A DNA stretch of 64,000 nt from Escherichia coli (GCF_044324785.1 NZ_CP172127.1), one strand, 5' to 3'; counted from the first letter of the stretch, positions 22,544 through 32,910 are shown. Notes: generated by a model not told the origin, from the sequence alone. A program made the numbers and translations.

Positions 22544-23539
22544 ATGAACGATAACGTTTTGCTCATAGGAGCTTCCGGATTCGTAGGAACCCGACTACTT
22601 GAAACGGCAATTGCTGACTTTAATATCAAGAACCTGGACAAACAGCAGAGCCACTTTTATCCAGAAATCACACAGATTGGCGATGTTCGCGATCAACAGG
22701 CTCTCGACCAGGCGTTAGCCGGTTTTGACACTGTTGTACTACTGGCAGCGGAACACCGCGACGACGTCAGCCCTACTTCTCTCTATTATGATGTCAACGT
22801 TCAGGGTACCCGCAATGTGCTGGCGGCCATGGAAAAAAATGGCGTTAAAAATATCATCTTTACCAGTTCCGTTGCTGTTTATGGTTTGAACAAACACAAC
22901 CCTGATGAAAACCATCCACACGATCCTTTCAACCACTACGGCAAAAGTAAGTGGCAGGCAGAGGAAGTGCTGCGTGAATGGTATAACAAAGCACCAACAG
23001 AACGTTCATTAACCATCATCCGTCCTACCGTTATCTTCGGTGAACGCAACCGCGGTAACGTCTATAACTTGCTGAAACAGATCGCTGGCGGCAAGTTTAT
23101 GATGGTGGGCGCAGGGACTAACTATAAGTCCATGGCTTATGTTGGAAACATTGTTGAGTTTATCAAGCACAAACTGAAGAATGTTGCCGCAGGTTATGAG
23201 GTTTATAACTACGTTGATAAGCCAGACCTGAACATGAACCAGTTGGTTGCTGAAGTTGAACAAAGCCTGAACAAAAAGATCCCTTCTATGCACTTGCCTT
23301 ACCCACTAGGAATGCTGGGTGGATATTGCTTTGATATCCTGAGCAAAATTACGGGCAAAAAATACGCTGTCAGCTCAGTGCGCGTGAAAAAATTCTGCGC
23401 AACAACACAGTTTGACGCAACGAAAGTGCATTCTTCAGGTTTTGTGGCACCGTATACGCTGTCGCAAGGTCTGGATCGAACTCTGCAGTATGAATTCGTT
23501 CATGCCAAAAAAGACGACATAACGTTTGTTTCTGAGTAA
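22544..23539 (+). CDS. gne: NAD-dependent epimerase of the Gne/Z3206 type (UDP-GlcNAc or Und-PP-GlcNAc 4-epimerase)
   Basis: 331 aa SDR with N-terminal GASGFVG motif; location between wcaM and galF as in O55/O86/O157-type strains; GC content lower than flanking core genes. Confidence 0.8.
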   Translation: MNDNVLLIGASGFVGTRLLETAIADFNIKNLDKQQSHFYPEITQIGDVRDQQALDQALAGFDTVVLLAAEHRDDVSPTSLYYDVNVQGTRNVLAAMEKNGVKNIIFTSSVAVYGLNKHNPDENHPHDPFNHYGKSKWQAEEVLREWYNKAPTERSLTIIRPTVIFGERNRGNVYNLLKQIAGGKFMMVGAGTNYKSMAYVGNIVEFIKHKLKNVAAGYEVYNYVDKPDLNMNQLVAEVEQSLNKKIPSMHLPYPLGMLGGYCFDILSKITGKKYAVSSVRVKKFCATTQFDATKVHSSGFVAPYTLSQGLDRTLQYEFVHAKKDDITFVSE

Positions 23540-23781
23540 TGCAGACGAGTCAGAGAAAAAAGGACCAGGTTGGACTACGATTATTCGGAAAGAGGTACTG
23601 ATTAAATTATCAGTATGCGGAATTCCGAGTAATCCGAGTAACCCAGATGCTGATGGTGTGTAGTGTTATCCTAAGGTTTAAGCAAAGTTATGCGGAACTA
23701 AGCTTTGGTATATAGCCATAACGTTTGGCTAACCTATGGCAATAATTTACGCACTATCAGCCACTTAGAGGTAGGAAAAGA

Positions 23782-24675
23782 ATGACGAATTTAAAAGCAG
23801 TTATACCGGTAGCAGGTCTTGGGATGCATATGTTGCCTGCCACTAAGGCGATTCCCAAAGAGATGCTACCGATCGTCGACAAGCCAATGATTCAGTACAT
23901 TGTTGACGAGATTGTGGCTGCAGGGATCAAAGAAATCCTCCTGGTAACTCATGCGTCCAAGAACGCGGTCGAAAACCACTTCGACACCTCTTATGAATTA
24001 GAATCTCTCCTTGAACAGCGCGTGAAGCGTCAACTACTGGCGGAAGTACAATCTATCTGTCCGCCGGGCGTGACTATTATGAACGTGCGTCAGGGCGAAC
24101 CTTTAGGTTTAGGCCACTCCATTTTATGTGCACGACCCGCCATTGGTGACAATCCATTTGTCGTGGTACTGCCAGACGTTGTGATTGACGACGCCAGCGC
24201 CGACCCGCTGCGCTACAACCTTGCTGCCATGATTGCGCGCTTCAACGAAACGGGCCGCAGCCAAGTGCTGGCAAAACGTATGCCGGGCGATCTCTCTGAA
24301 TACTCCGTCATTCAGACCAAAGAGCCGCTGGACCGCGAAGGTAAAGTCAGCCGCATTGTTGAATTCATCGAAAAACCGGATCAGCCGCAAACACTGGACT
24401 CAGACATCATGGCCGTTGGTCGCTATGTGCTTTCTGCCGATATTTGGCCGGAACTTGAACGCACTCAGCCTGGTGCATGGGGACGTATTCAACTGACTGA
24501 TGCCATCGCTGAACTGGCGAAAAAACAGTCCGTTGATGCCATGCTGATGACAGGTGACAGCTACGACTGCGGTAAAAAAATGGGTTATATGCAGGCATTT
24601 GTGAAGTATGGGCTGCGCAACCTGAAAGAAGGGGCGAAGTTCCGTAAAGGGATTGAGAAGCTGTTAAGCGAATAA
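23782..24675 (+). CDS. galF: UTP-glucose-1-phosphate uridylyltransferase regulatory paralogue GalF
   Basis: 297 aa, matches E. coli GalF; conserved 5' flank of the O-antigen locus. Confidence 0.9.
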
Positions 24676-24932
24676 TGAAATCTGACCGGATGTAACGGTT
24701 GATAAGAAAATTATAACGGCAGTGAAGATTCGTGGCGAAAGTAATTTGTTGCGAATATTCCTGCCGTTGTTTTATATAAACCATCAGAATAACAACGAGT
24801 TAGCAATAGGATTTTAGTCAAAGTTTTCCAGGATTTTCCTTGTTTCCAGAGCGGATTGGTAAGACAATTAGTACCTTATTATTTATATAAGAAAATGAAT
24901 GGGTAACACCAATTGAGTCATAGACATGTCTG

Positions 24933-30679: not shown

Positions 30680-31883
30680 TTTATTGAAAAAATATACACT
30701 TTTTTCATTGTCGCCACTACTTTCCGCGTTTATTCAGCTAGCTTCTATTTTTCTTTTAGGTCATTCATTATCAGGTCCGGAACTAGGTATAGCAGGAATT
30801 TATAACACAATAATTTTTATTTTGGTTTTTATTTCGGATGGTGGTAGCTCAAATTATTTCATTTATCGTAAGTTTTTACCAAAATATGATGTTAACTTGA
30901 TCAATATTTTTAATGTGGCTATATCTGCATTCGCTATAATTATCATAGGCTATTTCGTTCCAGAAAAATCCGATTTATTGGGGTTAATTGTAGTATCACT
31001 AACAGTTACACTTCCATTATATAATTATGCTCGTTTGTTAGTAGAAAAGAAATACAATATTATCGCTATAGTTGAACTAAAGTCAAAATTGTTATTTTTT
31101 ATTACATTATACATAGCAATTAACGAGTTTGGCTATCAAGGCAGTGCCGTAGTAATGTCATGGGCTGTTTCTTATTTTTTAAGATATTGTTTATTTTGGT
31201 TGTTTTCTAAAAAAATAGAATTATATAAAAATGATAATTTACCCCAAAATAAGCCAGCGGCGATTTTGAAAAGTTGGTGGATGTACATTCATAATCAAAT
31301 TTTGTCACAAGTACTAAATTATTTTACAATTACATTTGATATTTTTATTATATCGCATTTCGGGGGGCTTGAAAAAGTAGGTGTGTACAGTTTGTGCAAA
31401 GATGCTACTTTAAAAATAAGTGCTGTTTTAAGCCCGGTAATAAGCAAGTTGTTAATCTCTCACGTTGTTAATATTGAAGAGAATAAAATATTGCCTATGT
31501 ATAAAAAAGTATACAAGGCAACTATTATAATCTCTATAAGTGTATTTGGCATTTGGGCTTTATGCGGAAGTAGTATTATTCACTTTATTAGACCCCAACT
31601 GGATCAAGGTATTTTGACCTTTATACTTGGATGGTCTATATGTGGCATTCTTAGAATGATGATTAATCCAATTGTTTCTATTTTTCAGGCGACAGGAAAA
31701 ACAAGAAATGAATTATATGTTAATATTACTTCGGCGGTCTCGTTTATTGTCTTTATGGGAATGCTATCAATATATTTTGATAATATAGCCGATGCTGTTA
31801 TTCTTGCTTTAATATGTATGTATTCTATTTCGTTCGTTTATGCTACTGTTTTATTGAGAAAATATTTTTCTAAAATTTATTAA
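30666..31883 (+). CDS. wzx: O-antigen repeat-unit flippase Wzx
   Basis: 405 aa, ~12 TM segments, polysaccharide-transporter-like hydropathy; AT-rich; adjacent to GTs. Confidence 0.75.
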   Translation: MKINDLLKKYTLFSLSPLLSAFIQLASIFLLGHSLSGPELGIAGIYNTIIFILVFISDGGSSNYFIYRKFLPKYDVNLINIFNVAISAFAIIIIGYFVPEKSDLLGLIVVSLTVTLPLYNYARLLVEKKYNIIAIVELKSKLLFFITLYIAINEFGYQGSAVVMSWAVSYFLRYCLFWLFSKKIELYKNDNLPQNKPAAILKSWWMYIHNQILSQVLNYFTITFDIFIISHFGGLEKVGVYSLCKDATLKISAVLSPVISKLLISHVVNIEENKILPMYKKVYKATIIISISVFGIWALCGSSIIHFIRPQLDQGILTFILGWSICGILRMMINPIVSIFQATGKTRNELYVNITSAVSFIVFMGMLSIYFDNIADAVILALICMYSISFVYATVLLRKYFSKIY

Positions 31884-31893
31884 GGGTGGGTTT

Positions 31894-32910
31894 ATGAAAA
31901 TATTAATAACTGGCGGGACTGGTTATATAGGTTCTCATACAATTTTAATGTTGCTAAATGAAGGTTATGATATAGTTGTTATAGATAATTTTTCTAATTC
32001 ATCGCCTAAAGTTATAGAAAGAATTGAGTTTCTTTCTCAAAAAAAAGTATGCTTTCATGAAGGCGATATAAGAGATGAAAGATTTTTGAAATCTGTTTTT
32101 AAGGAACATGTCATTACGACGGTAATTCATTTTGCTTCACTTAAATCTGTTTCTGAATCTATTTTAATGCCCATTGAATATTATGATAATAATATTTCTG
32201 GAACTCTGACCTTGTTGAAGGTAATGAATTGTTTTGGTGTTAATAATTTTATCTTTAGTTCATCTGCAACAGTTTATGGTACTCCTTCTAGAATTCCGCT
32301 TGATGAGTCGTGTGATACTGGAGATACTACAAATCCATATGGAACTTCAAAACATTTTTTGGAGCAGATATTGATTGATACACAACGTGCTAATCCTGCA
32401 TTAAATATTATGCTACTGAGGTATTTTAATCCTGTCGGAGCCCATTCATCAGGTTTCATCGGCGAGGACCCGAATGGAATTCCAAATAATCTATTTCCAT
32501 ATATTACCCAAGTGGCCATTGGAAGATTACCGAGGTTGTCAATATTTGGAGATGATTATCCAACCGAGGATGGCACTGGAGTAAGAGATTATATACATGT
32601 TATGGATTTAGCATCTGGTCATGTTGCTGCTCTCAATAGACAGCCTGTTTTAACGGGATTGCGGTGTTACAATCTTGGCACAGGGAAAGGTTATTCAGTC
32701 AAAGAGATTGTTGAAACTTTTCAAAAAATAACTGGAAAAAAAATACCATATATTGTTTCTGCACGTCGTCCCGGTGATATAGCAGAATGTTGGTCGTCAC
32801 CAGAGTTAGCTAAAAAAGAACTTCATTGGGAAGCTAAGCGTAGTCTTGAGGATATGGTTATTGATGCTTGGAACTGGCAAAATAATAATCCAAATGGATA
32901 TTTAGAATGA
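31894..32910 (+). CDS. UDP-hexose 4-epimerase of the GalE family (UDP-Glc/Gal or UDP-GlcNAc/GalNAc)
   Basis: 338 aa; GGTGYIGSH Rossmann motif, SSSATVYG and YxxxK catalytic motifs; strong similarity to E. coli GalE. Confidence 0.8.
   Translation: MKILITGGTGYIGSHTILMLLNEGYDIVVIDNFSNSSPKVIERIEFLSQKKVCFHEGDIRDERFLKSVFKEHVITTVIHFASLKSVSESILMPIEYYDNNISGTLTLLKVMNCFGVNNFIFSSSATVYGTPSRIPLDESCDTGDTTNPYGTSKHFLEQILIDTQRANPALNIMLLRYFNPVGAHSSGFIGEDPNGIPNNLFPYITQVAIGRLPRLSIFGDDYPTEDGTGVRDYIHVMDLASGHVAALNRQPVLTGLRCYNLGTGKGYSVKEIVETFQKITGKKIPYIVSARRPGDIAECWSSPELAKKELHWEAKRSLEDMVIDAWNWQNNNPNGYLE

Follow-up and report, generated by a model that had tools for sequence, protein, structure and literature searches.

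Two distinct 4-epimerase genes, gnu and gne, accompany the O22 O-antigen gene cluster in an Escherichia coli genome

A 64,000-nucleotide stretch of one Escherichia coli genome (GCF_044324785.1, NZ_CP172127.1; hereafter the window, with positions counted from its first letter) holds an O-antigen locus in which the genes from the upstream epimerase to ugd lie on the + strand. The conserved 5' flank, galF (23782-24675), scores 689 bits against the TIGR01105 GalF model (cut-off 659), and the conserved 3' flank, gnd (33028-34434), matches Pfam 6PGD (E=2e-135). Between them lie, in order, genes for a GT4 glycosyltransferase (24993-26083), two GT2 glycosyltransferases (26080-26868 and 26865-27734; Pfam Glycos_transf_2, E=1e-18 and E=1.4e-23, respectively), the O-antigen polymerase Wzy (27735-28970; Pfam Wzy_C; RefSeq name 'O22 family O-antigen polymerase'), a hexapeptide-repeat O-acetyltransferase (28939-29522; Pfam Hexapep in reference genomes), another GT4 glycosyltransferase (29519-30679; Pfam Glycos_transf_1 and Glyco_transf_4), the O-unit flippase Wzx (30666-31883; Pfam Polysacc_synt_3; RefSeq name 'O22 family O-antigen flippase') and an epimerase (31894-32910) that ends 117 bp before gnd. 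A further gene, ugd (34683-35849), encodes a UDP-glucose 6-dehydrogenase with the N-terminal, central and C-terminal UDPG_MGDP_dh domains of Pfam and has the same annotation in the reference genomes; its product would supply UDP-GlcA, provided that the O22 unit contains GlcA. Upstream of the cluster, 25 nt before its first gene, positions 24933-24968 carry a sequence identified as the JUMPstart element (Hobbs & Reeves 1994; Bailey 1997) with its ops sequence (GGCGGTAGC at 24960-24968), found as a single exact match in the window. The RfaH-dependent O-antigen operon begins at this element, with the epimerase gene before gnd inside the operon, and galF and a second epimerase gene (22544-23539), which precedes it, outside. 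An earlier note on this DNA had placed its two epimerase ORFs at exactly these coordinates, upstream of galF and last before gnd.

The cluster belongs to serogroup O22, matching nine O22 genomes (including O22:H8 RM10809-3 and NCTC9022) at 100% coverage and 98.3-99.6% identity (99.6% to STEC711, 98.4% to NCTC9022), with the full gene order and the O22-specific wzx and wzy present. It is not intact in the window. A 1-nt deletion at 25526 (A8 to A7) breaks the first GT4 gene into ORFs 24993-25634 and 25571-26083, and another at 29165 (T7 to T6) breaks the acetyltransferase gene into ORFs 28939-29211 and 29280-29522; the GT4 gene is whole (363 aa) in STEC711 and NCTC9022, and the reference genomes have a whole acetyltransferase gene (194 aa). 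No initial-transferase family was matched by the scanned ORFs that lie between galF and gnd. Identities, positions, active-site residues, serogroup, non-redundancy and gene distribution were computed, and the substrate of Z3206 and the sugars of O22 were taken from the literature. Table S2 of Cunneen et al. 2013 (PMC3682973) gives O22 two GalNAc residues in the main chain and no GlcNAc, and scores it as needing both gnu and gne, each 'present and correct'. A literature search for the full repeat-unit structure gave only these sugar counts and a reference to Bartelt 1994.

The upstream epimerase gene (22544-23539, ATG start, 331 aa) lies between wcaM (20992-22386) and galF, the place it also occupies in O157, O22 and O102 genomes. 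Its product is identical at 330 of 331 residues to O157:H7 Z3206 (WP_000999466.1), the sole substitution being H209 in the window against Y209 in O157, which bears out the earlier reading of it as Z3206-type. RefSeq names it N-acetyl-alpha-D-glucosaminyl-diphospho-ditrans,octacis-undecaprenol 4-epimerase. It carries the SDR motifs GxxGxxG (GASGFVG at 9-15) and YxxxK (YGKSK at 132-136) and matches Pfam Epimerase (E=9.6e-31) and 3Beta_HSD (E=2.8e-27), and its closest Pfam and PDB relatives include the lipid-substrate SDRs 3-beta-HSD and NSDHL. Against the GalE model it reaches 71 bits, far under the cut-off of 262, and the GalE gatekeeper region has no alignable counterpart in it. By identity, it groups with the characterised Z3206 (Gnu, clade D in Cunneen et al. 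2013). As summarised in that paper (PMC3682973), Rush 2010 found Z3206 active on UndPP-GlcNAc and inactive on UDP-GlcNAc. The same paper shows that, for 104 of 115 serogroups, presence of the gene tracks GalNAc as the initial sugar. The upstream gene, formerly gne, is better called gnu.

A blastn comparison of the K-12 wcaM-galF region with the window delimits a 1.36-kb gnu module (22401-23765) running from the end of wcaM to a point about 16 bp short of the galF ATG; homology to K-12 ends 14 bp past the wcaM stop codon and picks up just before the galF start, and K-12 has 142 bp of unrelated spacer where the module sits. Among O22 strains, SNP density is low over 22400-24000, with highly divergent wcaM and galF sequence alongside. 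The G+C content of gnu is 45.4%, intermediate as the earlier note had it, compared with 41.8% for the adjoining 3' half of wcaM and 31.2% for the O22-specific block. From this composition the note had argued that the gene entered with the O-antigen region, a proposal that does not hold: gnu is far from the block in G+C content, the end of wcaM is at least as atypical, and a highly mosaic stretch of galF lies between gnu and the block. Moreover, gnu is found at 98-99% identity in 1315 of 5426 complete E. coli genomes (24%), in unrelated serogroups, and between E. coli and Enterobacter hormaechei the Gnu proteins are 87% identical, like those of the flanking genes (GalF, Gnd and Ugd, 90-95%), whereas the cluster proteins are 49-67% identical. 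The gnu module is thus compositionally and evolutionarily separate from the O22 block. A scan for promoter and terminator consensus sequences around gnu gave sites no more numerous than in shuffled sequence; a promoter-like site matching at 10 of 12 positions lies at 22411-22438, near gnu, and is a lead only.

The in-cluster gene (31894-32910; RefSeq label galE) encodes a 338-aa protein of the GalE clade, predicted to be a UDP-GlcNAc/UDP-Glc 4-epimerase. It scores above the cut-offs of both GalE models (TIGR01179, 435 bits against 262; PRK10675, 466 bits against 394), its top PDB matches are all GalE or GALE proteins (E about 1e-127), and it conserves S124, Y149, K153, N179 and N199. K-12 GalE, to which it is 54% identical, has the bulky Tyr299, which shuts the pocket of the housekeeping enzyme, where this protein has a gatekeeper cysteine, Cys299, aligned with C299 of the E. 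coli GalE variant Y299C (1LRK) and with Cys307 of human GALE; the protein also scores slightly higher against 1LRK (417.5 bits) than against wild-type GalE (412.5 bits). Like these small-gatekeeper enzymes, with which it has the GalE fold and catalytic set in common and which accept both UDP-Glc/Gal and UDP-GlcNAc/GalNAc (PMC3682973), it has an active site of the wide-pocket, UDP-GlcNAc-capable type. The GalE-like proteins encoded in the O102 and O107/O117 clusters have the same cysteine, and so do, taking the query and its top 120 matches, 120 of 121 GalE-clade sequences, presumed housekeeping ones included. Because it is so widespread in the clade, Cys299 would permit use of UDP-GlcNAc and is not proof of it. 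Cunneen et al. state that GalE and Gne are not separable by sequence alone (PMC3682973). Of 5426 complete E. coli genomes, 5391 carry a housekeeping galE, which makes the in-cluster copy an extra gene, and this strain very probably has a separate galE in its gal operon, which lies outside the 64-kb window. An epimerase of the GnaB/WbpP type, acting on UDP-GlcNAcA, is rejected because the TviC model gives 53 bits for the in-cluster protein (cut-off 760) and no match for Gnu, and because the cluster has no gene for a WbpO-like dehydrogenase. In this context, the in-cluster 'galE' is best read as gne, a gene that in 105 of 115 serogroups fits what non-initial GalNAc leads one to expect (PMC3682973). 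A search of the other E. coli serogroups for close relatives of the O22 gne gave nothing above about 67% nucleotide identity.

This arrangement resembles several known ones. Like O22, E. coli O86, with gne1 and gne2 (that is, gnu and gne), and the other members of group 5 of Cunneen et al. 2013 (O22, O37, O76, O86 and O87) have a gnu almost identical to that of O157 upstream of galF and a GalE-clade gne within the cluster, and their O units contain at least two main-chain GalNAc residues and no GlcNAc (PMC3682973). The position of gne differs, as gne2 comes first after galF in O86 and gne comes last before gnd in O22. In O157, whose Z3206 occupies the same wcaM-galF locus, there is one GalNAc and no gne (Table S2, PMC3682973), whereas O22 has two GalNAc residues and gne. 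The same epimerase bracket with the same gene order is found in E. coli O102 and in Enterobacter hormaechei; in the latter, the order is wcaM-gnu-galF-GT4-GT2-GT2-wzy-acetyltransferase-GT4-wzx-gne-gnd. There, as in O22, ops precedes the first glycosyltransferase gene and Gne has the gatekeeper cysteine, but rmlB/rmlA-like genes that O22 lacks lie between gnd and ugd.

We consider it very likely that the window holds an O22 cluster together with the two 4-epimerases that O22 is already known to need. WecA, encoded elsewhere, would make UndPP-GlcNAc at the inner membrane face, and Gnu, an NAD-dependent extended SDR encoded in its separate module, would epimerise this lipid-linked sugar so that the first sugar becomes GalNAc. 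Gne, whose activity we infer, would interconvert UDP-GlcNAc and UDP-GalNAc, giving the donor for the second, internal GalNAc, and probably UDP-Glc and UDP-Gal as well. The unit would then be completed, flipped and polymerised by the four glycosyltransferases, the O-acetyltransferase, Wzx and Wzy. Since Gnu, like Z3206, would act on UndPP-GlcNAc and Gne on UDP-GlcNAc, both enzymes would serve GalNAc at different substrate levels. The earlier suggestion that the repeat unit needs a 4-epimerised HexNAc thus stands; its further suggestion that the second enzyme might provide Gal or another epimerised sugar gives way to a role for both enzymes in GalNAc, with UDP-Gal supply at most a side benefit.

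RefSeq still calls the in-cluster gene galE, and Gal is part of the O22 unit, both of which would suit a plain GalE that boosts UDP-Gal, with the upstream enzyme acting as a soluble UDP-GlcNAc 4-epimerase (the 'Gne' of Wang 2002) for all UDP-GalNAc. We regard this as very improbable given the lack of Z3206 activity on UDP-GlcNAc in the summary of Rush 2010, the wide Cys299 pocket of the in-cluster enzyme, the fit of gnu and gne presence to GalNAc position across the 115 serogroups, and the near-universal housekeeping galE, which makes a plain second GalE superfluous; in O86, moreover, knock-out of either gene alters the LPS, so the genes are not interchangeable (PMC3682973). Counting against a division of labour between Gnu and Gne is an older in vitro report of overlapping UDP-hexose activities in the O86 enzymes, including a Gne1 identical to Z3206, as conveyed by its title (Guo 2007, cited in PMC3682973). 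That the two genes are functionally redundant paralogues has next to no probability. Both products are extended SDRs that depend on NAD and carry GxxGxxG and YxxxK motifs, but identity between them is only 24%, over 284 aa and in the Rossmann half only, and they match different models; rather than sharing one group and the same substrate-determining residues, only the downstream protein has the GalE substrate pocket, whereas Gnu, with its sub-threshold GalE score, unalignable gatekeeper region and lipid-substrate relatives, sits apart. The two proteins are thus distinct SDRs, as the earlier note had proposed.

The split GT4 and acetyltransferase genes, both whole in reference O22 genomes, raise the further reading that the locus is a decaying, non-functional cluster of a rough or O-non-typeable strain, in which the epimerases now contribute to no O antigen. 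This is unlikely, although it carries more weight than the enzymatic alternatives. Both epimerase genes are intact, and every indel that separates the window from the reference genomes shortens a homopolymer by one base (four of them in intergenic DNA); similar single-base homopolymer indels, in other tracts, occur in four of nine complete O22 assemblies, and in one of these the second GT2 gene has, in addition, a small insertion outside any homopolymer. Such a pattern is as much a signature of sequencing or assembly error as of real decay, and unless the frameshifts are sequencing errors, the O22 pathway may be incomplete in this strain. It is also improbable, though slightly less so than a plain in-cluster GalE, that the long A, T and G homopolymers of the low-GC cluster (A8 in the first glycosyltransferase gene, G9 in the second GT2 gene, A8 in the wzy/acetyltransferase overlap, T7 in the acetyltransferase gene and A8 in gne) are real slippage-prone switches and not sequencing noise; at least one such tract has a 1-nt change in five of ten O22 loci (the window and four of the nine complete genomes). 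If they were, slippage would toggle O-antigen synthesis, O-acetylation or UDP-GalNAc supply.

The Gnu/Gne pair in O22 is already documented, and its presence here is an ordinary finding. The two frameshifts in the cluster bear on whether this strain expresses O22. Beyond the right annotation of the two genes the result has little significance, and the locus is a textbook example of the division of labour published for Gnu and Gne.

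Two SDR epimerase genes bracket the O-antigen locus at the positions claimed for them in the earlier note. The gene gnu (22544-23539, + strand, 331 aa) lies between wcaM (20992-22386) and galF (23782-24675; it scores 689 bits on the GalF equivalog model, cut-off 659), and gne (31894-32910, + strand, 338 aa) is the final gene ahead of gnd (33028-34434), which follows it directly in gene order. Each encodes an NAD-dependent extended SDR, matching Pfam Epimerase at E=9.6e-31 for Gnu and E=4.3e-53 for Gne; the two proteins align at only 24% identity, and only across their N-terminal Rossmann halves. 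The earlier note's two-epimerase interpretation was right in spirit, but imprecise on substrates and mistaken in what it drew from GC content.

Gnu differs from Z3206 of O157:H7 (WP_000999466.1), encoded at the same locus, by a single residue (H209/Y209), and is named N-acetyl-alpha-D-glucosaminyl-diphospho-undecaprenol 4-epimerase in RefSeq. In the account of Rush et al. (2010) given by Cunneen et al. (2013, PMC3682973), Z3206 has no activity on UDP-GlcNAc and turns WecA-made UndPP-GlcNAc into its 4-epimer, UndPP-GalNAc; the family now bears the name Gnu (clade D). The protein carries GxxGxxG (residues 9-15) and YxxxK (residues 132-136) motifs, and a PDB search returned no close solved structure (top match E=1.3e-17). 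Its Pfam score on the 3-beta-HSD family nearly equals that on the epimerase family, which would be consistent with a lipid-linked substrate.

Gne scores above curated GalE cut-offs, aligns without gaps to K-12 GalE (54% identity), has GalE/GALE enzymes as its top PDB matches, and retains K84, S124, Y149, K153, N179 and N199 of the catalytic site and pocket. Position 299, where K-12 GalE has Tyr, is Cys in Gne, and residue-level alignment places this Cys299 opposite Cys299 of the E. coli GalE Y299C structure (1LRK) and Cys307 of human GALE. Pocket size at this position sets UDP-GlcNAc use, according to Thoden (2002) and Bengoechea (2002) as cited in PMC3682973. The in-cluster GalE-like proteins of O22, O102 and O107/O117 read GDIAECW where K-12 GalE reads GDLPAYW. 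A housekeeping galE is carried by 5391 of the 5426 complete genomes of E. coli, which makes gne very probably an extra, cluster-specific copy. Cys occupies the gatekeeper position in 120 of 121 GalE-clade sequences (the Gne query and its top 120 matches), and sequence alone cannot tell GalE from Gne (Cunneen et al., 2013, PMC3682973); the GalE-like gene of O22 is therefore a predicted Gne on the basis of its context and permissive pocket.

The 8.3 kb galF-gnd stretch aligns end to end with nine complete E. coli genomes (98.3-99.6% identity), among them an O22:H8 strain and NCTC9022, and RefSeq labels the wzx and wzy of these genomes "O22 family". The cluster encodes, in order, a GT4 and two GT2 glycosyltransferases, Wzy, a hexapeptide-repeat acetyltransferase, a second GT4 glycosyltransferase, Wzx and the GalE-like Gne. 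The sequence GGCGGTAGC at 24960-24968, 25 nt 5' of the first glycosyltransferase gene, belongs to a JUMPstart/ops element, so gne lies within the O-antigen operon, and gnu and galF lie outside it. We take the O22 unit to be a pentasaccharide of Glc, GlcA, GalNAc(3-OAc), Gal and GalNAc, a composition that would agree with the presence of four glycosyltransferases, an acetyltransferase and, downstream, ugd. Against the 5426 genomes, the window flanks (1-21000 and 37000-61000) reach no more than 97.3-98.1% identity with the best match, whereas the O22 block and O22 strains agree at 99.6%; the chromosomal background of the cluster is thus comparatively divergent and has no counterpart among those 5426 genomes. 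Within a wzzB-like ORF (35939-36973), 34 differences separate the 200-bp bin 36200-36399 from either O22 reference genome, and this patch is local hypervariable or recombinant sequence.

The GC content of gnu had been read as a sign of entry with the O-antigen region. At 45.4%, it stands against 31.2% in the O22-specific block, 41.8% in the 3' half of wcaM and 50.8% in galF, so composition gives no tie between gnu and the O22 block. Compared with K-12, the gnu segment (~22401-23765, 1.36 kb) is a clean replacement of the wcaM-galF spacer, standing in place of 142 unrelated bp. It is present in 1315 of the 5426 genomes, mostly at 95-99% identity, O157, O128 and O102 strains among them. Across O22 strains, SNP density is high in wcaM, low at 22400-24000, high in galF (24000-24700), low at 24800-33000 and high again in gnd, a pattern that sets the gnu module apart from the O22 block as two low-diversity islands, divided by a mosaic part of galF. 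Strain G6/7 has an IS1 at the site where gnu would be and a truncated wcaM, which suggests that gnu was lost there by IS action.

In the window, unlike in two O22 references that have both genes intact, the first GT4 gene (24993-26083) is split by a 1-nt contraction at 25526 (A8 to A7) and the O-acetyltransferase gene (28939-29522) by another at 29165 (T7 to T6). These frameshifts may be real inactivations or assembly errors. Four more indels relative to the closest genomes (24677, 33008, 53102 and 55633) are intergenic 1-nt homopolymer shortenings, and none was found in the 21-kb colanic acid region; since every window indel is a shortening, systematic homopolymer under-calling is hinted at. 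Frameshifted or truncated cluster genes also occur in four of the nine complete O22 genomes (L011-L014), with indels at window-equivalent positions 26505, 27068, 27465, 27729, 28956 and 32039 that are mostly 1-nt changes in A7, A8 or G9 tracts. A G9 to G8 change is common to two of the O22 assemblies, the A8 tract within gne is affected in LD91-1, and in G3 the second GT2 gene has, in addition, a small insertion of non-homopolymer type near 27465. The homopolymer indels in O22 loci may reflect sequencing error or real slippage.

The two-epimerase biology is already published for serogroup O22 itself. Table S2 of Cunneen et al. (PMC3682973) places O22 in group 5 with O37, O76, O86 and O87, lists two main-chain GalNAc and no GlcNAc, and scores both gnu and gne as needed and "present and correct". 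The O22 pair resembles that of the paradigm, O86, in which the LPS changes when either gne1 (the gnu gene, with a product identical to the O157 protein) or gne2 (gne) is knocked out (PMC3682973). The same reasoning has been applied to O125 (PMC9680116) and is given as a general rule in a 2019 FEMS review (PMC7685785). The O102 locus of E. coli 097H6 is bracketed alike, with gnu (1603-2598) upstream of galF and a GalE-like gene with the Cys gatekeeper (13716-14735) last ahead of gnd, despite which O102 is scored "gne missing" in Table S2 (PMC3682973).

Outside E. coli, the nearest homologue of O22 Gne (67% identity) is encoded in an Enterobacter hormaechei locus (Logan SRR24155040 contig, 1-12547) whose gene order is exactly that of O22, with gnu before galF and gne before gnd. 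Gnu is 87% identical to that of the window and GalF, Gnd and Ugd 90-95%, whereas the cluster-specific proteins, Gne included, are only 49-67% identical. Gnu behaves like a conserved optional flank gene and Gne like a serotype-specific one, and the comparison suggests that the O22-like locus is an old O-antigen form common to Escherichia and Enterobacter.
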